From Candidatus Eiseniibacteriota bacterium (GTDB lineage Bacteria; ARS69): 15,974 nucleotides of DNA. The translations under genes were made by a program, and so were the position numbers. The notes below the pieces were generated by a model that saw nothing but the letters and a program-made list of their open reading frames with translations, was not told the origin of the DNA and did not search any database. Below, piece after piece: positions 1 to 12,389 of the stretch; the stretch's first letter is position 1, and each line of letters begins with the position of its first letter. The stretch is taken from the NCBI GenBank assembly GCA_052390515.1, contig JBQTGV010000013.1:1-15974 (forward strand), read 5' to 3'.

Positions 1-510
1 CGTCTCGAAGCGGCCGGCGTGACAGGCCCCGGACCGGAACTCCTCCCCGAGGCGAAGCGCCCAGGGCTTCCGCGTGAGATCCGGGAAGATCGTCGCCAGA
101 CCGTCGCTCCCGCGCAGCGTCTCCGCCGCGGCGGACAGCGCTCCGAGGTGCGCGGGGTCGAGGTGCGAGTTGGCGAGGACCAGCGCGCGGGCCCCGTTGC
201 GCCGCAGCGCGCGGCCCAGCTCGACGACGTACGCGGCCACTCGCTCCGGATCGAGCGACAGCGTGCCGGCAAAGCCCTCGGCGAACGGCGCCGCGGTGAA
301 GGCCAGCGGCGGAAGCAAGACGACCTCGGCTCCTCGCTCGACGAGCTTCGCCGCACCCGCACGAGCCATCGCCCGCGCGATGATGACGTCGGTGCCGAGC
401 GGGAGGTGCGGGCCGTGGGCTTCGACGGCGCCGACGGGCAGCACCGCGATCCACTTGCCGGCGGCGAGAGCGGCGGCTTCCTCCCAGGTCATGAGCTCGA
501 GCTGCGACAT
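1..510 (-). CDS. Creatininase/ArfB-family metallo-amidohydrolase (3' end lies beyond the window edge)
   Basis: Hand translation of the minus strand from ATG at 510 gives MSQLELMTWEEAAALAAGKWIAVLPVGAVEAHGPHLPLGTDVIIA...LANSHLDPAH...GACHAGRFET. It has the family motifs MTW.E, LPVG..E.HGPHLPLGTD, N.H and HAG..ET. The frame is open to position 1, and an SD-like GGGAGA lies upstream. It is not in the ORF track because no stop falls inside the window. Confidence 0.9.
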   Translation of the reverse strand, partial: MSQLELMTWEEAAALAAGKWIAVLPVGAVEAHGPHLPLGTDVIIARAMARAGAAKLVERGAEVVLLPPLAFTAAPFAEGFAGTLSLDPERVAAYVVELGRALRRNGARALVLANSHLDPAHLGALSAAAETLRGSDGLATIFPDLTRKPWALRLGEEFRSGACHAGRFET

Positions 511-535
511 GCGCGCGGCGTCTCCCAGGCGGTCG

Positions 536-565
536 TTGACCGCGTTTCGCGCTCGTTCGTATCAT
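536..565 (+). promoter_or_regulatory. Sigma70-type promoter for the CoA ligase gene (probably leaderless or near-leaderless)
   Basis: TTGACC (536-541) - 18 nt - TATCAT (560-565), ending 8 nt before ATG 574. No SD in between. Confidence 0.65.
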
Positions 566-573
566 GACGCGCC

Positions 574-2112
574 ATGTCCTTCAAGCCGCCGGAACGCTTC
601 TGCATCGCCGACTACTTCCTCGACGACCGCATCCGGGAGGGCCGCGGCGATCGGCCGGCGCTGCTCACCGCTGAGCGCGCCTGGACCTATTCCGACGTGC
701 AGCACCTGGCCAACCGCTTCGGCAACGCCCTCCGTGCAGCCGGGGTCCGGCCCGAGGAGCGCGTGCTGATCGCCATGCCGGACGGCGCGGACTACGTCGG
801 AGCGCTCTTCGGAACGCTCAAGATCGGCGCGGTCGTCGTCATGGTGAATCCGGAGCTTCGTGCCGACGCGGTGGCGTACTTCCTGGACTACACGCGCGCC
901 TCCGCGCTCGTCGTGCACGAGTCCTCGGCGGCCGAGTTCGGCGCCGCCGCGCGCGGCGCAATGCACCTGCGGACGGTCCTGACAGCCGGCTCGCCGGCCT
1001 TCGCGAAGGCGCTCGATGCCGCTTCGCCGCAGCTCGAGAACTTCCCGTCGCACAAGGACGACGCGGCCGTCTGGCTCTTCTCCGGCGGCACGACGGGGCG
1101 GCCCAAGGCCGTGGTGCAGACGCACCGCTCCTTCGCCAACACCACGGAGTGCTACGCCAAGGGAGTGATCGGCTACTCCGCCGACGACGTGACGCTCTCC
1201 GTGCCGAAGCTCTACTTCGGCTATGCCACGGGATCGAACCTCTTCTTTCCGTTCGCGGCCGGCGCGCGCGCCGTGCTCTTTCCGGAGCCGGCCACGCCCG
1301 AGGCGCTGTTCGCGCACGTCGCGCGCTTCCGACCCACGATCCTCGTGAACGTGCCGACCCTGATCCATCGCATGGTGAGCCATCCCGACGCCGCGCGTCA
1401 GGACCTCTCCTGCCTGCGCCTGGCGACCTCCGCGGGTGAGGCGCTGCCGGCGGAGCTGCACCGGCGATGGATGGACACGTTCGGCGTGGAGCTCCTCGAC
1501 GGTCTGGGCACGGCGGAGATGTGGCACATCTTCCTCTCCAACCGCCCCGGCGATGTTCGCCCGGGGACGCTGGGCAAGGCCGTTCCCGGATTCGACGTCC
1601 GCGTCTGCGACGACGACGGCCGATGCCTGCCCGACGGCGAGACCGGCTGGCTCCGCGTCCGCGGAGATTCCCGGGCGCTCGGCTACTGGCAGCAGATGGA
1701 GAAGACCGCCGAGGCCTTCCAGGGCGAGTGGTACGTGACCGGCGACATGGTGGTGCGCGACGCCGACGGGACGTTCACCTACTGCGGCCGCGGCGACGAC
1801 ATGCTGAAGGTCTCCGGGAAGTGGCTCTCGCCCAAGGAAGTGGAGAGCTGCCTGCTGCGGCATCCCGCCGTGCGCGAGGCGGCGGTGGTGGGCGTGGCCG
1901 ACGCGGCGGGGCTGACCAAGCCGCACGCTTTCGTGGTGGCCGAGGGCGAAGGACGACCCGAGCTCGGCGAGGAGCTGAAGTCCTTCGTGCGGGAGCAGCT
2001 CGAGCCGTACAAGTACCCGCGCGAGGTGCGCTTCCTGACCGAGTTCCCCCGAACGCACCTGGGCAAGGTCGACCGCGGGAAGCTCCGCGCGCTCGCCGGA
2101 TCAGCCGAGTAG
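574..2112 (+). CDS. Benzoate-CoA ligase family aromatic acid-CoA ligase (AMP-forming); anthranilate-CoA ligase candidate from context
   Basis: 512 aa. ANL motifs include the P-loop WLFSGGTTGRPK, DGLGTAEMWHIFLSN (benzoate-CoA-ligase-type DG.G..E..HIF.SN), WYVTGD, GRGDDMLKVSG, YKYPR and the catalytic Lys in PRTHLGKVDR. Confidence 0.9.
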   Translation: MSFKPPERFCIADYFLDDRIREGRGDRPALLTAERAWTYSDVQHLANRFGNALRAAGVRPEERVLIAMPDGADYVGALFGTLKIGAVVVMVNPELRADAVAYFLDYTRASALVVHESSAAEFGAAARGAMHLRTVLTAGSPAFAKALDAASPQLENFPSHKDDAAVWLFSGGTTGRPKAVVQTHRSFANTTECYAKGVIGYSADDVTLSVPKLYFGYATGSNLFFPFAAGARAVLFPEPATPEALFAHVARFRPTILVNVPTLIHRMVSHPDAARQDLSCLRLATSAGEALPAELHRRWMDTFGVELLDGLGTAEMWHIFLSNRPGDVRPGTLGKAVPGFDVRVCDDDGRCLPDGETGWLRVRGDSRALGYWQQMEKTAEAFQGEWYVTGDMVVRDADGTFTYCGRGDDMLKVSGKWLSPKEVESCLLRHPAVREAAVVGVADAAGLTKPHAFVVAEGEGRPELGEELKSFVREQLEPYKYPREVRFLTEFPRTHLGKVDRGKLRALAGSAE

Positions 2113-3261
2113 ATCGCCGAGCCTCTCGCCCAGCTCGTCGACGTCCGCCTCGTCCTGATAGACGCCGAACCCGAAGCGGATCCGCTCCCCGCGCCAATCG
2201 GTGACGACGCCCTTCTCGCGGAGGCGCGCATGCAGGCGCTCCGCGTCCGACTGCCGGAAGGTGAGGAAGTGACCGCGCTCGGCGAAGGAGCGGTCGGGCA
2301 CCAGGCGACCGGAGTGCAGCTCCCGCGCGCCGAGTCCGTCGAGGCGCTCCAGGAAGCGGCGCTCCAACGCGAGCGCGTGCGCGTGGATGGCGGGGACGTC
2401 GACTCCCTCGCTAAGCCAGAGCTCCATGACCGCGTCGAACCGGTAGAGCCCGCTGGGATCGAATGTCGCGCCGACGAAGCGCGTCCCGTCCTTCGCGTAC
2501 TCGACCGCGCCGCGCCCCTCGCCCGACTCGAGCTTCCCGAAGCCCGCGTACCAGCCGGTGTCGACCGGCCGCTCGCCGAACCCCGGCGGGCAGTGCAGCA
2601 AGCACACCCCTTCGCCGCTCATCGCGTACTTGTACCCGCCGGCGAGGTAGAAGACGCGGTGCTCGACGCCCGAGAGATCCGTGGGCACGGCGAAGAAGCC
2701 GTGATAGCCGTCGATCACGACGAGCGCGTCGTCCCGGGCAGCGTCCGCCACGTCCCGAAAGTCCTCGAACAGGAACCCCGAATTGAAGAACACTTGGCTC
2801 ACGTAGACGAGGTCGTGCTCGCGGGAGGCGGCGCGTTCGAGGAAACGCTGGGCGAAGCTCGGGAACGGCTCCGTCTTCACGCGCTCGACGGCCATGCGTC
2901 CGGCCTCCTCGAAACGGCGGCTCTGCCGCTCGAAGCTGTGGAATTCCGAATCGGTCGTCAGCACCCGGATCGTGCCGGGCGGCAGGCAGGACACGATGCG
3001 CATCAAGAAGTCGTGCGTGTTCGGCCCGAACGCGATCGTCGCGGGATCGGAGAGCGAGAGAACGCGTGCCACGTGCTCCTGTGCGCGTGGAACCAGCTCC
3101 CCGAAGATCCGCTCCCACTTGAAATCGAGCGAGGCCGCGGCGTCGAGCCAGGCGCGCTGCTGCGCCTCGAAGGACACGTCGGGCCAGGGGTGGTGGCTGT
3201 GCGCGGCGAAGTGCAGCCGTCCCGGCGCCGCCGCCAACGTGCGCGAGAAGTGCCGCTTCAG
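2101..3261 (-). CDS. Kynureninase-like PLP-dependent enzyme (aminotransferase class V fold); start codon uncertain (CTG 3261 or TTG 3237)
   Basis: C-terminal part of ORF 2101..4197: LHFAAHSHHPWP, TTDSEFHS, VSQVFFNSG, VIDGYH (PLP Asp), GGYKYAMSGEG (PLP Lys, similar to kynureninase YKY..SG.G), GWYAGF and RFGFGVY. It lies directly downstream of kynA. Confidence 0.8.
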   Translation of the reverse strand: MKRHFSRTLAAAPGRLHFAAHSHHPWPDVSFEAQQRAWLDAAASLDFKWERIFGELVPRAQEHVARVLSLSDPATIAFGPNTHDFLMRIVSCLPPGTIRVLTTDSEFHSFERQSRRFEEAGRMAVERVKTEPFPSFAQRFLERAASREHDLVYVSQVFFNSGFLFEDFRDVADAARDDALVVIDGYHGFFAVPTDLSGVEHRVFYLAGGYKYAMSGEGVCLLHCPPGFGERPVDTGWYAGFGKLESGEGRGAVEYAKDGTRFVGATFDPSGLYRFDAVMELWLSEGVDVPAIHAHALALERRFLERLDGLGARELHSGRLVPDRSFAERGHFLTFRQSDAERLHARLREKGVVTDWRGERIRFGFGVYQDEADVDELGERLGDLLG

Positions 3262-4340
3262 AGCTGGAAGCTCATCTTCCGCGCGACCTCCGGGGGCAGC
3301 TTGGGCAGCGCGGAACGCGGCAGGAAGAACGTGGACAGGTCGAACAGGTCGGTGAAGATCTTGTAGCGCTCGGCCGCCTCCCGCAGGTAGTCGGTGCCGG
3401 AGGTGCCGCCCGTGCCGACCTTGCCGCCGATCATGCGCCAGGCCATCAGCGCATGGCGATGGCGCCAGCTGGTGAGACCCTCGTCCACGTCCATGAGCAG
3501 CTGCAACAGCCGGAAGGGCAGCTGCAGGATCGGCTCGTCGCGGTACAGGTTGATCAGCAGCGCGGCGAGCAGCGCAGGATGGGAAAGGCGGCGACGTCCG
3601 GCGCGGAGCAGTTCGTCGTGCTTCCCGCGCTCGAGCAGCGTCTCGAAGTTCGCCTCGGTGCGCCGGAAGCGGTCGAGCAGCGCGGTCCGTTCCGGCTCGG
3701 TGAGCGCCGCGTTCTCGCGGATCTGCGCCTTGTCCCGCTCCAGCGTGGCGCGCACGGCCCGCTCGTACTCCCGCCAGAAGTCGTACGCGCCGAGCTGCAG
3801 GAACGGCGTCCGAGCGAGCCAGCGGTCCACGAGCGCCAGCAGCGAGGGCTCGATGACGGACTGCTCCACCGCCTTCCGGTCCGTGTCCGACAGCCGCGAC
3901 GTGTATGCCGCACCCTCGATGGTCATGCGCACTTCCGGCGGCAGGCCCAGCCGGTTCTCGAGCAGGCGGAACTGCGCGCTCTGGAAGCCGGACGCGGGCA
4001 CGAGCAGGCTGCGGAAGTCCAGGAAGTCGAGCGGAGTCATGGTCTCCAGCACCTCGATCTGGCCCAGCAGCACGCGCTCGATCGAAACGATACGCCGCAG
4101 GTGAGCCTCGACCTTGCCCATGTCCCGCTCGTCGATGGACGGCGCGCGGAAGAGCGCGAGCACCGCGTCCAGCTCGAAGAGGATCTGCTTGAACCACAGC
4201 TCGTAGGCTTGGTGCACGACGATGAAGAGGTGCTCGTCGTGCACGGCCTTACCGCGCTTCGCGCTCTCCAGCTCCTGGGCGGAGAGCAGCTTGTCCAGGC
4301 AGAGGTAGTCCGAGTAGTAGAGAGGACGCGGCGGCGACAT
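3258..4340 (-). CDS. kynA: Tryptophan 2,3-dioxygenase (long, about 360 aa type)
   Basis: From ATG 4340: MSPPRPLYYSDYLCLDKLLSAQ, HDEHLFIVVHQAYELWFKQ, LETMTPLDFLDFR, PASGFQSAQFR, WRHRH (heme His) and RMIGGKVGTGGTSG..YL. All are TDO hallmarks. Confidence 0.95.
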   Translation of the reverse strand: MSPPRPLYYSDYLCLDKLLSAQELESAKRGKAVHDEHLFIVVHQAYELWFKQILFELDAVLALFRAPSIDERDMGKVEAHLRRIVSIERVLLGQIEVLETMTPLDFLDFRSLLVPASGFQSAQFRLLENRLGLPPEVRMTIEGAAYTSRLSDTDRKAVEQSVIEPSLLALVDRWLARTPFLQLGAYDFWREYERAVRATLERDKAQIRENAALTEPERTALLDRFRRTEANFETLLERGKHDELLRAGRRRLSHPALLAALLINLYRDEPILQLPFRLLQLLMDVDEGLTSWRHRHALMAWRMIGGKVGTGGTSGTDYLREAAERYKIFTDLFDLSTFFLPRSALPKLPPEVARKMSFQL

Positions 4341-4412: not shown

Positions 4413-5258
4413 ATGCGCCCGCACACCCTGACGCTCCGGATCGGCCACAGCCCCGACCCCGACGACGCCTTCATGTTCTACGCGCTGGCCCGGGAGGTCG
4501 AGGGCGAGGATGGCGGCATCGAGGTGGAGCACGTGCTCGAGGACATCGAGTCGCTGAACCGTCGCGCTGCAACCGGGGAGCTCGAGGTCACGGCCGTGTC
4601 TGCTGCCGCGTATCCGGGGCTGGCGGACCTGTACTGGATCATGCGCTCGGGGGCGAGCATGGGGCGCGGCTACGGTCCGATCCTCGTCGCGCGGGAGGAG
4701 ATGGACCCCGCGGATCTGGCCGGCCGGACGGTCGCCGTTCCCGGCCTGCAGACCACCGCGAACCTGCTGCTCGGCATCCACTGTCCCGGAGTCGAGCGCG
4801 AGGTCGTCGCCTTCGACGCCATCCCGGACCACGTGCTCGACGGCCGCTGCGACGTCGGACTGCTCATCCACGAGGGGCAGCTCACCTACGCGGACCTCGG
4901 CCTGCGCAAGATCCTGGACTTCGGTGTGGTCTGGCAGGAGGAGACTGGCGGGCTGCCGCTTCCCCTCGGGCTGGACCTCGTCCGCAAGGACCTCGGCCGC
5001 GAGACGGCCTCGCGCATCTCCGCCACGCTCCGCCGCTCCATCGAGCACGCGCTGGCACACGAGGACGACGCGCTCACGTACGCGCTCGGGTTCGGCCGTG
5101 GGATCAGCCGCGACGTCGGGCGCCGTTTCGTGCGCATGTACGTCAACGAGGACACGCTGGACATGGGCGAGGAAGGGCTCGCCGCGCTGCGCCATCTGTA
5201 CGCGCGTGCGAAGGAGAAGAGCCTGCTCGACCGCATCCCGGATCTCGAGCTGGTTTGA
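4413..5258 (+). CDS. mqnD: 1,4-dihydroxy-6-naphthoate synthase, MqnA/MqnD family (futalosine menaquinone pathway)
   Basis: 281 aa from ATG 4413: GHSPDPDDAFMFYAL, DIESLN, GASMGRGYGP, VAVPG..TTA, GLLIHEGQLTY, LPLPLG and MYVNE, matching the MqnD pattern. Confidence 0.85.
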   Translation: MRPHTLTLRIGHSPDPDDAFMFYALAREVEGEDGGIEVEHVLEDIESLNRRAATGELEVTAVSAAAYPGLADLYWIMRSGASMGRGYGPILVAREEMDPADLAGRTVAVPGLQTTANLLLGIHCPGVEREVVAFDAIPDHVLDGRCDVGLLIHEGQLTYADLGLRKILDFGVVWQEETGGLPLPLGLDLVRKDLGRETASRISATLRRSIEHALAHEDDALTYALGFGRGISRDVGRRFVRMYVNEDTLDMGEEGLAALRHLYARAKEKSLLDRIPDLELV

Positions 5259-5413: not shown

Positions 5414-7234
5414 TCAGAACAGGCCGACCTTCAGCGGGATCCCGATCGACACGATGATCCAGGCGATCACCGTGAGCGGCAGCCCCAAGCGCAGGTAGTC
5501 CGAGTAGCGGTAGCCGCCGGGCCCCATGACCATCAGATTCACCTGGTGGCCCGCCGGCGTGGCGAAGCACATCGACCCGCCGAAGGCGATGGCCAGCACG
5601 CACCCGCGGACCAGCGCCTGCGCGTGCGGATCCCCTGGCGCGAGCCCCTGCGCGGCCGCGTAGGTTTGCGCGGTCAGCACCGCGATCGGCGTGAGCAGCA
5701 CGGCCACCGCCGCGTGCGCGATGAGCATGTTCAGCAGGATGCAGAGCAGCACGAATCCGGAGATGAGCGCCGCCGCGCCCCAACCGGCGGCCACTCCGAC
5801 GATCGCGCCGGCCACGAGAGACGCGGCTCCGGTCCTCTCCATCGCCGTCCCCAGCGAGAGCGTTCCGACGATGAACAGCAGCACCGGCCAGTCGATGGTG
5901 TGATACACGCGCCGGGGTGTGACGCAGCCGGTCCCGATCATGGCCAGCGCTCCCATCATCGCCACGAACGGCAAGGGCAGCCACGGCGTGTCCCACACGG
6001 CGCTGGTAGCGAACAGCACGACCACCGACCCCGCGATGGTGAGTGCGCGCCTCCCCCGCTGCCGGAGCCGGACCGCCCCGTCCGCGCCGGTCAGCACGTA
6101 GAAGTCGTCGCTCGCGGCGAGGCGCGTCTCCGCCTCCTCGTCGCCGAGTACGAGCAGCAGGTCCCCGGCGCGCAGGTGCAGCTTGCTCACGCGCTCGCGG
6201 ATGTGCTGGCCGGCGCGCAGCACGGCGACGGTGACGGCACCGTAATCCCGCCACAGCTCCAGCTCCTGCGCGGAGCGTCCCACCAGCGGCGAGTGCGGGG
6301 CTATGGCCACTTCGAAGAAGGACATCTCCTTGTCGGTGGAGCGCGTGCCGGCGGCGTAGCGCAGGCCGAGCTCGCGCTGCAAGTCCACGATCTCGTCCAC
6401 CCCGCCGCGAAGCATGACGACGTCGCCCTTGGTCACGGTATGACCCGGGAACGGGCCGAAGACCATCTCCTCCTCCCGCACGTAGAAGACCAGCTCGGCC
6501 TTGACCTTGCCGAAGACGTCGTCGTACGGGCGGCCGATGAGCGTCGACGTCGGCCCGATCACGAGCTCGGTCACGTACCGGCGGTGCCCCCGGCCGCCGC
6601 CCATGAGCACGGTCAGGCTCTTGCGGTCCGGCAGGATCTTGCGGGCGAAGAGCGTCAGGTACAGGAGCCCGCTCATCGTCAGGAAGATGGCCACCGGCGT
6701 CATCTCGAACATGCCGATCGGCGCCTGCCCCCACTCCTCGGCGACGCCGCTCACGATCAGGTTCGTGGACGTTCCGATCAGCGTGTTCATCCCGCCGAGC
6801 AGTGCGCAGAACGAGAGCGGCATCAGCAGGTGCGACACCGGCGAGCCCGTCGTCCGGGCCATCTCCACCATGATCGGCAGGAAGACCACGACCACGGCGG
6901 TGTCGTTCAGGAAGCTGGAGACGAACGCCGCGACGCCCCCGGCCAGGAGGATCATGCGCCGCGTGCGCCCCAGCGAGACCCGCAGCAGGGTCCGCGCCAC
7001 GAACTCGAGGGACCCGGTGCGCGTGAGCCCTTCGCCCACGACGTACAGCCCGGCGATGGTCAGGATGGCCTTGTTGCCGAAGCCGGCGACGGCCTCGCCG
7101 TAGGACAGGATCCCGGCGAGTACCGGCGCCACCATCAGCAGGATGCCGATGGCGTCGATCCGCACGCGACCGGCGACCAGCATCGCCAGCGTGGCGAGAG
7201 CCAGTCCGAGGACGAAGGTGACCTGCCAGTCCAT
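5414..7234 (-). CDS. SLC13/DASS-like permease with central TrkA-C (RCK_C) domains
   Basis: 606 aa with hydrophobic N- and C-terminal halves. Motifs [29 protein letters not shown] and [26 protein letters not shown]. The soluble centre has S.LIGR/SPLVGR and L.AGDLLLV.G segments typical of TrkA-C. Confidence 0.9.
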
Positions 7235-7243
7235 GAGCCCCGA

Positions 7244-7252
7244 ACCCTATCA
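7244..7252 (-). promoter_or_regulatory. Candidate extended -10 (TGn-TAGGGT) for the SLC13 gene
   Basis: The minus strand reads TGA-TAGGGT-TCGGGGCTC-ATG, 9 nt before the start codon. Confidence 0.4.
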
Positions 7253-7293
7253 CGGCTGCCGGGAGCCGTCGTTCCCTTGTCGGCCGGGAGGGC

Positions 7294-7363
7294 GGCGGGT
7301 TCGAGCCGTGGCGCAACCCACCGGCGGGCTGCTTCGAGCCGCTGGGCAACCCACCCACCGGCG
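7294..7363. repeat. Imperfect tandem direct repeat (two copies, 33-bp period) in the divergent intergenic region
   Basis: TTCGAGCCGTGGCGCAACCCACCGGCG (7300-7326) versus TTCGAGCCGCTGGGCAACCCACCCACCGGCG (7333-7363). GGCGGG lies just upstream of each copy. Confidence 0.7.
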
Positions 7364-7411
7364 AATCCGTCATACAATCCGCACATTCGCGCCGATCCTG
7401 CTTCCTGGAGG
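7346..7411 (+). promoter_or_regulatory. Candidate promoter elements and RBS for the GYF-AIM24 gene
   Basis: GCAACC (7346-7351) - 16 nt - CGTC (7368-7371), an ECF-sigma-like AAC...CGT spacing. TACAAT at 7373-7378 is sigma70 -10-like. SD GGAGG at 7407-7411 lies 7 nt before ATG 7419. Confidence 0.5.
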
Positions 7412-7418
7412 AACCGAC

Positions 7419-8441
7419 ATGGACGCGCAGGCCGCTTGGTACATCGCCGTGCAGGGCAAGAACGAGGGCCCGTTCACTCGGGACGAGATCGCGGCGAAGC
7501 TCGCCGCGGGACAGATCACGGAGGAGACCTTCGTGTACACCGCGGGAATGGCTGGCTGGGAGCCGATCAAGAGGGTCGGAGCGCTCCGCGGCGGGAACGG
7601 GGCGCCGCCGCCCCAGCCGCCCGCCGCCCTGACCGGGAAGCGCTCGGACGAGATCGACTACGAGATCTTCGGCGAGGAGATGCAGTTCGTGGAGATCACG
7701 CTCGATCCCGGCGAGGCAACCGTCGCCGAGGCCGGTTCCTTCATGTACATGGATCCGGCCATCCAGATGGAGACGATCTTCGGCGACGGAAGTCACCGCG
7801 CGCAGAGCCAGGGCTTCCTGGACAAGATGCTGTCCGCCGGCAAGCGCGTGCTCACCGGAGAGTCCCTGTTCATGACGCTCTTCGGAAACGCCGGCGCGAC
7901 GCGGCAGAAAGTGGCCTTCGCCTCTCCGTATCCCGGCCGCATCCTCGCCATCGACCTGCCATCGCACGGAGGCACGATGCTCTGCCAGAAGGACTCGTTC
8001 CTCTGTGCCGCGAAGGGCGTGTCGGTCGGCATCGCGTTCCAGAAGCGGCTGGGCGCCGGCCTCTTCGGTGGCGAAGGCTTCATCCTGCAGAAGCTCGAGG
8101 GCGACGGCATCGCCTTCGTGCACGCGGGGGGCCACGTCGTGCAGCGCGAACTCGCCCCCGGAGAGACGCTGCGGCTGGACACCGGCTGCCTCGTCGCGTT
8201 CGAACAGCACGTGAGCTACGACATCCAGTTCGTCGGCGGGATCAAGACGGCGCTGTTCGGCGGCGAAGGTCTCTTCTTCGCCACCCTGACCGGACCGGGG
8301 CGCGTGTTCGTGCAGTCGCTGCCCTTCAGCCGGCTCGCCAGCCGGGTGATGGCCGCGGCGTCGCGCACCGGCCGCCGCCGCGAGGAGGGTTCGCTGCTCG
8401 ACCACGTCGGTGGTCTGGGCCGTCTCATCGACGGGGATTGA
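7419..8441 (+). CDS. TIGR00266/AIM24-family protein with N-terminal GYF_2 (DUF4339) domain
   Basis: 340 aa from ATG 7419 with a strong SD. The N-terminal WY...G...GPF...I......G.I..ET.V...GM.GW fits GYF_2. A Pro-rich linker is followed by [53 protein letters not shown] and [14 protein letters not shown] (AIM24). Confidence 0.9.
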
Positions 8442-8518: not shown

Positions 8519-10444
8519 TTGACCGACCCTCACTCCGACGACGACCCCCCTGCGCTGCGCCGCTGCCTGGAGCGTGAGCGGTCGCAGCGGCGGGCGGCGG
8601 AGAGCCGCCTCTCCGAGAAGAGCCGCGAGCTGCTGGACACCTACCAGAGCCTGCAGCGCGCGGACGAGGAGCTGGACGCCCGCGTGGCCGAGCGCACGCG
8701 CGCGCTGCAGGAAGCGAACCTACTGCTGCAGTCCGAGGTGGCCGAGCGGCAGAAGGCCGAGGGCCACCTGCGCGAGGCTCGCGACCGCGCCGAGGTGGCG
8801 ACGGACGGACTGCGCTTCGCGCTGGACGAGTCCGAGCGGCTGCGGCAGGCCGCGGAGGTCGCGGCCCGCACCAAGGCGGAATTCCTGGCGAACATGAGCC
8901 ACGAGATCCGCACGCCGATGAACGGCATCCTCGGCATGGTGCAGCTGCTGGAGACGACCATGCTCTCCGGCGTGCAGCACCAGTACCTCGAAACGGTGCG
9001 CACGTCGGCCGACGCGCTGCTCGCGCTCATTAACGACATCCTGGATCTCTCCAAGATCGAGGCCGGGGGGATGGAGATCGAGGAGATCCCGTTCGACCTC
9101 GTCGAGACGATCGAGAACGTCGGCGATCTCCTGGCCATGCGCGCGCACGAGAAGGACGTGGATCTGATCGTGCGCTACGGCTCCGGACTTCCCGGCGTGC
9201 TGCGCGGCGACCCCGATCGCCTTCGCCAAGTCCTCGTGAACCTCCTCGGCAACGCGGTGAAGTTCACGCCGGCCGGGCACGTCCTCCTCCAGGCCGCCTG
9301 CGACCGGACCGAGGAAGGGCGCGCCCACCTCGTGCTCGAGGTGAAGGACACCGGCATCGGCATCGACGCCGACAAGCTGGAGATGATCTTCGAGAAGTTC
9401 ACCCAGGCGGACGGCTCCACGACCAGGCTCTACGGCGGGACCGGGCTCGGCCTGTCCATCAGCCGCGAGCTCGCCGAGATGATGGGCGGCACGCTGACGG
9501 CGGAGAGCCGCCGCGGCGAAGGTTCCACGTTCCGGCTGCGGATCGCGCTGCCGATCGTCGAGGCGGCCCCGGCTGCGGTCCCGACTCCCCATGCCGGCGG
9601 GCGTGCGCTCGTGCTCGATCCCTCGCCGCTCTCTCGCACCGTGCTGGCCGAGCTCCTGGGGCAGCTGGGCGTCGCCGTGGACGAGGCAGCGTCGGCCGAG
9701 GACCTCGTGCGGATCCTGGCCTCGGCGCACACGCCGGCCTGGCGATGGATCCTCGCCGAGATCACGGACGCGAACGCGGCCTCGGAGATCGCCGGTTCGG
9801 TGCGGGAGCGCTACGGCGAGATCGCTCCGACGCTCATCGCCGTGACCCGGCTCGGCTCCGGCGCCGACCGGCTGCAGCTCCTGGAGCACGGCTTCCAGGG
9901 GCTCATCATGAAGCCGGTGCGCCCGTCGCGCCTCCCCGATCTGCTGGAGAAGGCACGCGGCGGCGCGCTCGAGGTGCCCAAGGTCTCCCGCCGGCCGCAC
10001 CCCAGCACGTCGCTCAGCCGCCCGCCCTCCGGCACGGCCCGTCAGATCCGCATCCTTGTCGCCGAGGACAACGTGGTGAATCAACGCGTGGCCCAGGGAA
10101 TGCTGGAGAAGATGGGCTGCCGCGTGGAGATCGCCGGGGACGGACGCGAGGCGCTCGCCCGCGTGGCGGCGGAGTGCCCGGACCTCGTGTTCATGGACTG
10201 TCAGATGCCGGTCATGGACGGGTACGCGGCCGCGCGAGAGATCCGCCGACTCCAAGCGCCCGCGCGCGACGTCCCCATCATCGCCATGACCGCGCACGCC
10301 ATGGCCGGCGACCGGGAGAAGTGCCTCGAGGCCGGGATGAGCGACTACGTGGCGAAGCCGGTGCGCATCGCCGCCGTCCGCGAGGCCATCGAGAAGTGGT
10401 GCGGCGGTGACCTGCGCGTTCCGGAGCTCAGCGCTCCTGCCTAG
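8519..10444 (+). CDS. Soluble hybrid sensor histidine kinase (coiled coil - HisKA - HATPase - degenerate REC - REC)
   Basis: H-box FLANMSHEIRTPMNGI, N-box NLLGNAVKFT, G1 DTGIGI, F-box FEKFTQAD and G2 GGTGLGL. The C-terminal receiver has AEDN...FMDCQMP...MTA...KP. No TM segments. The TTG start is uncertain. Confidence 0.93.
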   Translation: MTDPHSDDDPPALRRCLERERSQRRAAESRLSEKSRELLDTYQSLQRADEELDARVAERTRALQEANLLLQSEVAERQKAEGHLREARDRAEVATDGLRFALDESERLRQAAEVAARTKAEFLANMSHEIRTPMNGILGMVQLLETTMLSGVQHQYLETVRTSADALLALINDILDLSKIEAGGMEIEEIPFDLVETIENVGDLLAMRAHEKDVDLIVRYGSGLPGVLRGDPDRLRQVLVNLLGNAVKFTPAGHVLLQAACDRTEEGRAHLVLEVKDTGIGIDADKLEMIFEKFTQADGSTTRLYGGTGLGLSISRELAEMMGGTLTAESRRGEGSTFRLRIALPIVEAAPAAVPTPHAGGRALVLDPSPLSRTVLAELLGQLGVAVDEAASAEDLVRILASAHTPAWRWILAEITDANAASEIAGSVRERYGEIAPTLIAVTRLGSGADRLQLLEHGFQGLIMKPVRPSRLPDLLEKARGGALEVPKVSRRPHPSTSLSRPPSGTARQIRILVAEDNVVNQRVAQGMLEKMGCRVEIAGDGREALARVAAECPDLVFMDCQMPVMDGYAAAREIRRLQAPARDVPIIAMTAHAMAGDREKCLEAGMSDYVAKPVRIAAVREAIEKWCGGDLRVPELSAPA

Positions 10445-12389
10445 TGTTCCGTCTCGGAACATTGGCCCGGCGCCGGAGCAGCGTGATCCCGAGGGCGATC
10501 AGCACGGCGCTTCCCGTCCAGCCCGCCGGACCCGAGAGCCAGGGCGGCAGCGTGCCCGAGCGGCCGGCGAGGATGGCGATGCCGTTGTAGGTCGCGTGGA
10601 AGACCATCGCCGGAAAAAGCGAGCCGGTTCGCACCACGATCGTGCCGAGCACGGCGCCCAACAGGAACGTCGGGGCGAGGCGGAAGACGTTCAGGTGGAT
10701 AGCCGCGAACATCGCCGACGACGCCAGCACCGCGGCGCGAGCGGTTCCGGTCCGGCGGAGCAGCCCGAGGAACACGCCGCGGAACACCAGCTCCTCGCAG
10801 ACGCCCGGGCTCAGCGCGACGAGGAACAGCAGCCGGCCGGTGCTCAGCTCGGCGAGTCCCTCCTGCACCGGGCGAAGCGCGTCCTCCGGCATCGGCAGGA
10901 AGAGAGACTGAATGCGCGCCAGTCCGTCCACCATGGGTAGGACCGCGCCAGCACCGAGCGTCGCGGCGCCGAGCAGCTCGGGGAGCCTCGGGCGGCGGAG
11001 CGCGAGCACTTCGGCGAGCCGCCCGCCGGCCCACGCGAACCGCAGCGCGAGCGCGCCCAGCACCGGGAGCACGATCCACAAGCTCTGGGCTAGGCCGGCC
11101 TGCAGGTCACGGGACTGCAGCTGCTGGCCCACGTAGAAGAAGCCGAGCACCGTGCCGGCCATCCCCAGCCAGGCGGCGCGGCGGCGCCCCGCGGGCGTCC
11201 CTCCGAAGAGCGGCTCCGGAGCGAACCCCAGGATCGTGTCCTCGCGGGAGAGCACGCCGGCGGTCCAGCGCACCACGAGCGCCGCCCAGGCCAGGGACGA
11301 CGCCGCCACCAAGGCGATGCGCATCAGCGGCACGTCGCCGAGCAGCACGTCGCGCAGCGCGACGGCGACGTTGGCCACCGGCAGCAGCGCCACGAACGGA
11401 TCCAGGCGCACGTCCTGCGTCCGCGAGAGGATCGCCGGGACGAAGGCGAGCAGCATCGCGGGAAGGACGTAGTACTGCGCTTCCTTCTGGCTGCGCGCGA
11501 ACGCGGAGATGCCGAGCAGCAGGCCGCCGACGAGCGCGGACAGCGGAGCGACCAGCACGAAGCACAGCAGGATGCCGCTCGGGGAGAGGGCCGTCGCCTC
11601 GGCGCCGCCCTCGCTGATCAGCCCGAACCGGTAGCACAGCACCAGGCTCGCGAGGCTGAGTGCTCCGGTGAGCAGCGTCCCCGCCGCCACGACGACGAAC
11701 TTGGCCCTGGCGATCTCCGCGCGGCGTACCGGTGCGAGGTACAGCGTCTCCAGCGTGGCACGCTCCTTCTCGCCGGCGACGACGTCCACGGCGAGCGGCG
11801 CCGCGCCGAGGAACAGCGTGAGGATCACCAGGAACGGCACCAGCCGTCCCGCCTCGGCGCCGCCGGCCTCCTCGGCGGTGGCGACATCGATCTCGGTGAC
11901 GGCCACGAGGGCGTCGAGGTCCTCGCGACCTCCGGCCTCGCGGTAGCGGCGCTCCCGCTCCCGCTCCCTGGCCTCGTCGACGGCCGAGCGCACGCGCTCG
12001 AGCGCGGCCGCCGCGTTCGGTTCGGTCCCCTGGTGCACGAGCCGGACCTTCGCCGGGCCCTTCGCCGCGTCCACCCAGACCTCCAACCGTCCTTCGCGCA
12101 CGCGCTCGAGCAGGAGCTCCGCGTCCGAATCGCCGACCAGGACGAGACCGCTCGTGCGTCGCAGCACCTCGCGCAGCGGCTCCGCCTCGCCGGTGACGGC
12201 CACGCGGAAGGCGCTGTCCTCCGAGCGCTCCGCCTGCCGCCGCTCGAGCCAGGTCTGGAAGGTGAACGTCGCCGGGTAGATCAGGATGGGCAGCACCACG
12301 GAGGCGAACAGCATGCGCCGGTCGCGGCGAAGCTCCGCGACCTCTTTCGCCACGAAGGCGCCGCTTCGCCCCCACCAGCGGCGGATCAC
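10428..12389 (-). CDS. NatB-like ABC-2 permease fused to a C-terminal CPBP (Abi/CAAX) intramembrane metalloprotease
   Basis: 653 aa from GTG 12389, a GTGA overlap with the ATPase stop. Permease motifs are KE..ELRRDRR, D.VAGEKERATLETL...PV.R and FARSQKEAQ.Y. CPBP motifs are CEELVFRG, FAAIH and H.TYN. Confidence 0.9.
   Translation of the reverse strand: MIRRWWGRSGAFVAKEVAELRRDRRMLFASVVLPILIYPATFTFQTWLERRQAERSEDSAFRVAVTGEAEPLREVLRRTSGLVLVGDSDAELLLERVREGRLEVWVDAAKGPAKVRLVHQGTEPNAAAALERVRSAVDEARERERERRYREAGGREDLDALVAVTEIDVATAEEAGGAEAGRLVPFLVILTLFLGAAPLAVDVVAGEKERATLETLYLAPVRRAEIARAKFVVVAAGTLLTGALSLASLVLCYRFGLISEGGAEATALSPSGILLCFVLVAPLSALVGGLLLGISAFARSQKEAQYYVLPAMLLAFVPAILSRTQDVRLDPFVALLPVANVAVALRDVLLGDVPLMRIALVAASSLAWAALVVRWTAGVLSREDTILGFAPEPLFGGTPAGRRRAAWLGMAGTVLGFFYVGQQLQSRDLQAGLAQSLWIVLPVLGALALRFAWAGGRLAEVLALRRPRLPELLGAATLGAGAVLPMVDGLARIQSLFLPMPEDALRPVQEGLAELSTGRLLFLVALSPGVCEELVFRGVFLGLLRRTGTARAAVLASSAMFAAIHLNVFRLAPTFLLGAVLGTIVVRTGSLFPAMVFHATYNGIAILAGRSGTLPPWLSGPAGWTGSAVLIALGITLLRRRANVPRRNTRQER
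10443..10463. repeat. Short hairpin at a convergent gene junction, related to the 5261-5410 element
   Basis: AGTGTTCCG-TCT-CGGAACATT (9-bp stem with one G-T pair). 10443-10456 matches the reverse complement of 5397-5410 at 13 of 14 positions. Confidence 0.5.

Follow-up and report, generated by a model that had tools for sequence, protein, structure and literature searches.

Archaeal riboflavin synthesis employs ArfB, a formamide hydrolase of the creatininase superfamily. According to PMC9478397, BrbF, which was originally annotated as a creatininase, is a characterised hydrolase of the N-formylamino group on the pyrimidine ring in riboflavin synthesis; by this precedent, deformylation of aromatic formamides is therefore established chemistry in the creatininase family. 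The aerobic 2-aminobenzoyl-CoA pathway has 2-aminobenzoyl-CoA monooxygenase/reductase (ACMR) as its key enzyme, as stated in PMC4539516 and PMC3534580, and the Arthrobacter strain of the latter paper is reported there to grow on anthranilate via the CoA route. The degradation of tryptophan via ACMR was omitted from PMC9007349 'due to a lack of knowledge'. Here we analyse a stretch of 15,974 nucleotides (the window) from Candidatus Eiseniibacteriota bacterium, which is the start of contig JBQTGV010000013.1 (C13) in an assembly of 223 contigs and 4.27 Mb rated 95% complete (GCA_052390515.1, our genome G000). At its very start lies a creatininase-family gene (CRE) next to genes for an aryl-CoA ligase, a kynureninase-like enzyme and tryptophan 2,3-dioxygenase (TDO). 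Judged by comparative sequence evidence, CRE is probably an aryl formamidase, a non-homologous replacement for KynB.

The first 4,340 nucleotides hold these four genes contiguously, as the initial annotation had described, and the locus makes up the upper half of a supercluster for tryptophan catabolism. In the proposed pathway, TDO would open tryptophan to N-formylkynurenine, CRE as a binuclear-metal amidohydrolase would take the formyl group off, the kynureninase-like enzyme would release anthranilate, and the ligase would turn anthranilate into anthraniloyl-CoA. The operon headed by CRE, which continues with a short-chain dehydrogenase/reductase (SDR), RidA, enoyl-CoA hydratase (ECH), acyl-CoA dehydrogenase (ACAD) and ACMR, would then dearomatise and degrade anthraniloyl-CoA. 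The four-gene module from tryptophan to anthraniloyl-CoA that had been postulated is found alone in loci L043 and L028, but the window's own locus extends through the ACMR operon on another contig, C186. Candidate substrates of CRE are N-formylkynurenine, N-formylanthraniloyl-CoA and, should the kynureninase act first, N-formylanthranilate.

The CRE fragment is missing from the open reading frame track, as had been noticed, because the window holds only part of the gene, which runs off the contig end. C186 begins with 25 bases that match window positions 1-25 exactly in reverse complement, and the CRE frame runs on in C186 bases 2-262 on the plus strand with a match to profile positions 160-236 (46.6 bits), which gives a full protein of ~249 aa across C13 and C186. 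Both parts score above the gathering cut-off of PF02633 (31.3 bits). The join of the two contigs is backed because the same gene order (MqnA, TDO, kynureninase-like, ligase, CRE, SDR, RidA, ECH, ACAD, ACMR) is found on single contigs in loci L083 and L098, the latter in a genome of the same phylum as the window.

The fold of CRE is not in doubt. Its best solved relative is creatininase 1q3k / 1j2t (~78-80 bits, profile positions 6-182), which is from Pseudomonas putida. The blocks EAHGPHLPLxTD, NxHLDPxH and CHAGxFE, invariant or nearly so in 19 subfamily sequences, align with 1q3k, and the site residues E, H, D, H, H, E are kept, presumably as the metal ligands Glu, His, Asp, His and Glu with the catalytic His. 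CRE falls below the cut-offs of the creatininase equivalog TIGR04448 (62-92 bits, cut-off 235), of the mycofactocin peptidase MftE, TIGR03964 (82-114 bits, cut-off 172), and of the 3-dehydro-scyllo-inosose hydrolase IolN, NF041098 (33-46 bits, cut-off 245); no mycofactocin genes were seen among CRE neighbours, and Pfam/NCBIfam scans gave no PF04199 or TIGR03035 match to CRE. The fragment has 5,972 homologous matches, the best 120 of which are 59-80% identical, mostly 240-275 aa long and named in their sources only 'creatinine amidohydrolase' or 'creatininase family protein', and the protein atlas likewise gave only 'creatininase family protein' clusters. The window's own genome also carries a second, distant creatininase-family paralogue (G000:C159:15119-15802, 92 bits to the CRE profile).

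The pathway has a hole in the window's own genome, which holds TDO, the kynureninase-like gene, the ligase and ACMR and no KynB. A search of this whole genome, as advised in the initial annotation, found no PF04199 member and no tblastn match to the KynB proteins of two Gemmatimonadota genomes, AFMID-type alpha/beta hydrolases not being specifically searched. Within the window, Pfam/NCBIfam scans of all 12 genes found no PF04199 cyclase and no alpha/beta hydrolase, which bears out the reported lack of a KynB-type cyclase or an alpha/beta-hydrolase formamidase.

The distribution of CRE and KynB was compared in 251 Gemmatimonadota genomes searched with the CRE profile, PF03301, TIGR03035 and the ACMR protein; the minimum completeness was set to 90%, and no quality figures were reported per genome. 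PF04199 was dropped as a KynB marker since it is too broad, with ~285-aa cyclase-family proteins scoring ~150 bits there, and KynB was scored instead by TIGR03035 score and adjacency to TDO. CRE scores were bimodal (76 genomes at or above 270 bits, G260 at 210 bits, three split genes, others below ~110 bits), CRE was called at E<=1e-44, and a KynB-like gene was called strong at E<=1e-28 (~100 bits or more), a level reached in 85 genomes, with one genome only passing the curated TIGR03035 cut-off. Five ACMR matches covering the Old Yellow Enzyme (OYE) half only were dropped (G029, G075, G085, G202, G216), and seven genomes without listed TDO positions were counted as not adjacent to KynB. The tallies include the unpublished genomes G191, G166, G066 and G106, and G289 in the second sample described below; none of the genomes cited here by name as an example is among these five.

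CRE was present in 80/251 genomes and absent from 171. TDO was found in 78/80 genomes with CRE and 78/171 without, and ACMR in 77/80 and 27/171, respectively. Among genomes with TDO, a strong KynB-like gene occurred in 10/78 with CRE and in 44/78 without it, and KynB lay within ~3 kb of TDO in 1/78 and 26/78. The anti-correlation that the initial annotation had proposed to look for holds with ACMR held constant, as a strong KynB-like gene was present in 10/77 ACMR-positive genomes with CRE and in 21/27 without it (Fisher p = 1e-9, kin not being independent); without G260 and the four unpublished genomes, the counts are 9/75 and 21/27. A second sample, independent of the first, took 101 genomes from the phylum that locus L015 belongs to; CRE was present in 29, all of which had both TDO (29/29) and ACMR (29/29). 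A strong KynB-like gene was found in 2/29 of them as opposed to 6/9 genomes with TDO and without CRE (Fisher p 7e-4), and the single genome with ACMR and without CRE (G310) has KynB. In the window's own phylum, CRE was detected in 6/12 genomes, 6/6 of which have a long-type TDO and ACMR and 4/6 of which have no PF04199 member at all. Linkage, TDO co-occurrence and the anti-correlation with KynB together support the idea that CRE may fill the KynB step, which had been put forward from the window alone.

As a separate observation, a strong KynB-like gene is carried by 31 genomes of the second sample, 23 of which gave no match to TDO, and five of the seven genomes passing the curated KynB cut-off are among these 23. 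The KynB-like enzymes of these genomes must serve another substrate or another dioxygenase.

The neighbourhood of CRE is conserved well beyond the window. A locus scan with one genome per species gave at least 600 pattern matches, 571 of them confirmed relatives, and the best 80 loci were examined; they come from Gemmatimonadota, Eisenbacteria, Acidobacteriota, Planctomycetota, Myxococcota and one member of Burkholderiales. Neighbours were counted by tblastn with the window genome's own proteins, and only loci with enough flank were counted. The ligase was near CRE in 62/67 loci (divergent and adjacent in 59/67) and is its most constant partner, SDR was near in 60/67 (directly after CRE in 56/67), and ACMR in 36/45. 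The expected linkage to kynA/kynU was also recovered, with TDO or kynureninase near CRE in 38/80 loci overall and in 30/44 with at least 9 kb of downstream flank. When all called neighbours were clustered, no recurrent hydrolase besides CRE appeared in CRE-bearing (type-a) loci, and the KynB proteins from two Gemmatimonadota genomes had no match in any of the 80 loci. Other recurrent neighbour families were an extra OYE-like gene, a Ser/Thr kinase, a 2-hydroxyacid dehydrogenase and a tetratricopeptide repeat protein. In 9/80 loci, e.g., at 14287-15735 of L040, the extra OYE-like gene (~480 aa, Oxidored_FMN 117 bits) separates ACAD from ACMR.

On C186, CRE is followed on the same strand by genes for SDR, RidA/L-PSP, enoyl-CoA hydratase, acyl-CoA dehydrogenase and ACMR, the last a protein of 752 aa with FAD_binding_3 and Oxidored_FMN domains, i.e., a fusion of an FAD monooxygenase and an Old Yellow Enzyme. 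Ralstonia proteins match it with 55% identity over 99% of its length, and the neighbours of ACMR in Ralstonia CP023017.1 are 3-hydroxyacyl-CoA dehydrogenase, MarR, enoyl-CoA hydratase, acyl-CoA dehydrogenase, an annotated 2-aminobenzoate-CoA ligase, a thioesterase and RidA. The ACMR fusion, an aryl-CoA ligase and beta-oxidation-like genes, by which an abm-type pathway is recognised, are all present, and the gene set of the C13/C186 locus is therefore predicted to encode a route from tryptophan via anthraniloyl-CoA to a dearomatised CoA ester.

Two types of cluster can be distinguished. The commonest type-a layout is a ligase on the minus strand followed by CRE-SDR-RidA-ECH-ACAD-ACMR-TDO-kynureninase. 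Type-b clusters, e.g., those of Ralstonia CP023017.1, Gemmatimonadota G136, G239 and G263 and myxobacterial G010, have one-to-one counterparts of SDR, ECH, ACAD, RidA and ACMR together with a ligase, and no CRE. Their ACMR is 50-59% identical to that of the window's genome; the type-a ligase, of the benzoate-CoA-ligase type, is only 35% identical to the type-b ligase, and type-a clusters are without MarR. Moreover, a search of 72,556 plasmids gave no tblastn match to CRE at E<=1e-20, and near-full-length ACMR was present on 240 of them. Therefore, the lower pathway does not need CRE. In G136, a type-b cluster is directly followed by a convergent KynB-TDO pair, and this is the same supercluster with KynB in place of the type-a CRE. 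The type-b ACMR cluster of G263 has neither KynB nor CRE and includes thiolase and 3-hydroxyacyl-CoA dehydrogenase; genes for an alpha/beta hydrolase (283 aa) and a GDSL-type hydrolase (215 aa) lie directly upstream of its TDO (L096, G263:C120 4592-6084), and these two are possible candidates for further formamidase substitutes. G136 and G263 suggest that lineages differ in the hydrolase that takes the formamidase slot.

Some genomes have the cluster split. In L043, the ligase is divergent from a CRE-TDO-kynureninase operon, and ACAD-ACMR is on another contig; in L028, TDO-kynureninase-ligase stands beside CRE in a genome without an ACMR match (E<=1e-60); and in G010, a ligase-CRE pair is 4.7 Mb away from a complete type-b cluster. 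Where the cluster is split in this way, CRE stays with the upper pathway. CRE is apart from the lower cluster also in G267 and G268, and the CRE genomes G011 and G269 have no ACMR match. The ligase-CRE pair stands alone in L050, L053 and L063, three loci of Myxococcota in which neither TDO nor kynureninase lies within 10 kb, and TDO was found somewhere in the genome in 5/5 odd (split-cluster or pair-only) genomes examined.

Several points weigh against CRE as a KynB substitute. CRE is as tightly tied to ACMR (77/80 genomes) as to TDO (78/80), and it is the first gene of the SDR-RidA-ECH-ACAD-ACMR operon, a position that alone fits a downstream role. A KynB-like gene is present in 10/77 and 2/29 CRE genomes. 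Many CRE genomes, though not the window's own, have the ~285-aa cyclase-family paralogue, which scores 75-95 bits on TIGR03035 and could itself be a formamidase. A further 34/156 Gemmatimonadota genomes with TDO have neither CRE nor a strong KynB-like gene; formamidase holes are therefore common and other solutions exist. The thresholds for CRE and KynB were set after the bimodal score distributions had been seen, and type a and type b may be two lineages whose kinship inflates the anti-correlation. A same-phylum relative, G003, has kept the cluster and lost CRE, and has no PF04199 member. The sub-module of the acidobacterial genome G011 fits neither a formamidase nor a step after ACMR cleanly. 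This sub-module (L027, 10001-14511) reads CRE-SDR-RidA-TDO-kynureninase, with no ACMR match in the genome and no ligase within 10 kb. In G003 (L097, G003:C12 9041-12310), BNR-repeat, DUF1905/OmdA/DUF5655 and YjbR genes stand in place of CRE. We considered G003 as a natural loss; there is no substitute hydrolase among the replacing genes, and the case does not discriminate between the readings. Similarly, G260, the single CRE genome with KynB adjoining TDO, was considered as a counter-example with CRE near ACMR and discarded, as the protein is a 42%-identical paralogue in another pathway. Its cluster (L094, G260:C22 3758-15742) comprises an ABC transporter, an ACMR-like gene, the creatininase paralogue, hydantoinase B, a 46%-identical ligase and hydantoinase A, and appears to be a pathway for some other aromatic or cyclic amide.

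The operon position and the tie to ACMR would be explained if CRE acted after ACMR on 2-amino-5-oxocyclohex-1-ene-1-carbonyl-CoA or a derivative, perhaps by deaminating the vinylogous amide hydrolytically or by cleaving a ring C-C bond in the manner of IolN, a carbocycle-opening hydrolase of the creatininase family to which the match of CRE is weak (33-46 bits). Such a role is given room by the steps after ACMR, which are not established experimentally according to PMC3534580, PMC4539516 and PMC9007349, and SDR directly follows CRE in most loci. However, type-b clusters hold the same six enzymes without CRE, none of the plasmids with ACMR carries CRE, CRE stands apart from the lower cluster in G010, G267 and G268 and occurs without an ACMR match in G011 and G269, and this role would leave a formamidase hole in 67/77 genomes with both ACMR and CRE. 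We therefore regard a role after ACMR as rather unlikely, and the alternative raised in the initial annotation, an action downstream of the CoA ester, is weakened. A formamidase acting in reversed order is a minor possibility of its own: the divergent kynureninase would cleave N-formylkynurenine to N-formylanthranilate, and CRE and the ligase would deformylate it and yield 2-aminobenzoyl-CoA for ACMR. CRE as a deformylase of N-formylanthranilate or its CoA ester would explain why the ligase and not TDO is its most constant partner; we know of no dedicated enzyme for this deformylation.

It is quite unlikely that CRE hydrolyses another amide or lactam, such as N-acetylanthranilate, anthranilamide or isatin-type lactams, or a substrate unrelated to the pathway, with N-formylkynurenine being deformylated by an unrecognised enzyme elsewhere or by unspecific hydrolases. 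The lone ligase-CRE pairs of L050, L053 and L063, the 34 genomes with TDO and with neither CRE nor KynB, the lack of both in G003 and the creatininase paralogue of G260 in a different cluster with hydantoinase A/B are consistent with it. On the other hand, all five odd genomes examined have TDO, as do 78/80 and 29/29 CRE genomes, L043 holds a CRE-TDO-kynureninase operon, and hydrolysis of another amide does not predict a specific anti-correlation of CRE and KynB. That C13 and C186 are not neighbours, and the CRE fragment is a stray contig end left by assembly or binning, is scarcely credible: the basis of the join is an overlap of 25 nt between contig ends, in an assembly of 223 contigs, but frame and Pfam profile pass exactly from one end into the other, and L083 and L098 have the same ten-gene order on single contigs. 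The role of CRE as an aryl formamidase in place of KynB is thus the reading we favour.

The genes of the window are listed in Table 1. Its DNA has ~70% G+C, and because of this high G+C the frames were picked by third-position GC, with naming by Pfam and NCBIfam. Transcription of the four genes of 1-4340 falls into three units: CRE diverges from the ligase, the ligase converges on the kynureninase-like gene with a 12-nt overlap, and the latter is co-directional with TDO. The spacer between CRE and the ligase is inferred to be a shared promoter region; inspection of its 63 bp showed no operator-like inverted repeat. The nearest solved structures to the ligase are benzoate-CoA ligase 2v7b (406 bits) and anthranilate-CoA ligase 4wv3 (395 bits), and its orthologues with 59-71% identity adjoin CRE in related loci.

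Table 1. Coordinates of features in the window, with the matches that identify them
Feature	Position	Strand	Length and evidence
CRE, creatininase family PF02633	1..510	-	N-terminal 170 aa; 143 bits, E 1.4e-41, profile positions 2-167
Divergent intergenic spacer between CRE and ligase	511..573	.	63 bp
LIG(a), aryl-CoA ligase, proposed anthranilate-CoA ligase	574..2112	+	TIGR02262 503 bits, cut-off 375
KYNUL, divergent kynureninase-like pyridoxal phosphate enzyme	2101..3237	-	378 aa, TTG start
TDO, tryptophan 2,3-dioxygenase, long eukaryote-like type	3258..4340	-	360 aa; PF03301 356 bits, whole profile
MqnA-like gene, divergent from TDO	4413-5258		VitK2_biosynth 241 bits; no evident pathway link
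AIM24-domain protein with N-terminal GYF_2 domain	7143-8441		Unrelated to the finding
ABC-2 permease fused to CAAX-protease (Rce1-like) domain	10428-12353		Unrelated to the finding

For KYNUL, called kynureninase-like in the initial annotation, the KYNU_C match is weak and just above the cut-off (36 bits, cut-off 27), and that to Aminotran_5 is weak as well (34.7 bits); NCBIfam gave no match, and the sole match in PDB was kynureninase 1qz9 (32 bits). KYNUL is 36-37% identical to the canonical-type kynureninases of related clusters and has a GGYKY lysine motif. The window's TDO is the sole TDO of its genome and scores ~322-325 bits to full-length (355-403 aa) PDB chains, which are presumably animal enzymes, as compared with 103 bits to the short bacterial 2nw7. 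The long type is common to the window's small phylum (~362-365 bits in G003-G007), and most Gemmatimonadota clusters have the short bacterial type, 31-36% identical to the window's TDO. The neighbourhood of MqnA and TDO is kept in L083, L097 and L098 at 73-80% identity. Besides the MqnA-like, AIM24/GYF and ABC-2 transporter genes of the table, the other eight window genes include a CitMHS transporter, a hybrid histidine kinase, further ABC-2 transporter parts and an amino-acid permease.

Judged by titles and abstracts, a search of the full-text literature found nothing that gives an enzyme of the creatininase family a part in the breakdown of tryptophan or anthranilate. Nothing was found for creatininase with 2-aminobenzoyl-CoA monooxygenase, creatinine amidohydrolase with kynureninase, or 2-aminobenzoyl-CoA with kynureninase; creatininase with kynurenine formamidase or anthranilate returned a mouse kidney study and a uremic toxin review, which look unrelated by the same standard. 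In the locus, an unrelated family probably performs a known reaction, within an operon layout that is conserved and has so far not been described. If the proposed function is true, CRE would join the KynB cyclase fold and the eukaryotic alpha/beta hydrolases as a third, unrelated protein family with kynurenine/aryl formamidase activity, and an uncharacterised creatininase subfamily would gain a function. The complete conserved operon joins the kynurenine pathway to the 2-aminobenzoyl-CoA monooxygenase/reductase route, and it is spread over 80/251 Gemmatimonadota and 29/101 genomes of the second phylum, with examples in Acidobacteriota, Planctomycetota and Myxococcota.

The eukaryotic kynurenine formamidases AFMID and Bna7 perform the same reaction with a third unrelated fold, that of alpha/beta serine hydrolases; Pfam/NCBIfam scans found no gene of this type in the window. 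Creatininase shares its site residues with CRE, whereas the context of CRE is tryptophan and anthranilate catabolism and not creatine or sarcosine genes. BrbF is of the same family as CRE by annotation and differs in its substrate, a formylaminopyrimidine nucleotide. The abm-type clusters, as in Ralstonia and Arthrobacter, have ACMR, SDR, ECH, ACAD, RidA and an aryl-CoA ligase in common with type a, to which CRE is added, often with TDO and kynureninase in the same operon; the abm clusters of Azoarcus evansii reportedly belong here by their gene content. KynB (PF04199 / TIGR03035) has a cyclase-like fold and belongs to a family unrelated to CRE, for which we propose the same reaction. It is metal-dependent with a binuclear zinc site, according to PMC4243253, and the alignment with creatininase predicts a metal site in CRE as well. 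KynB adjoins TDO beside the type-b ACMR cluster of G136, where type-a clusters have CRE, and across the sampled genomes the two are largely mutually exclusive.

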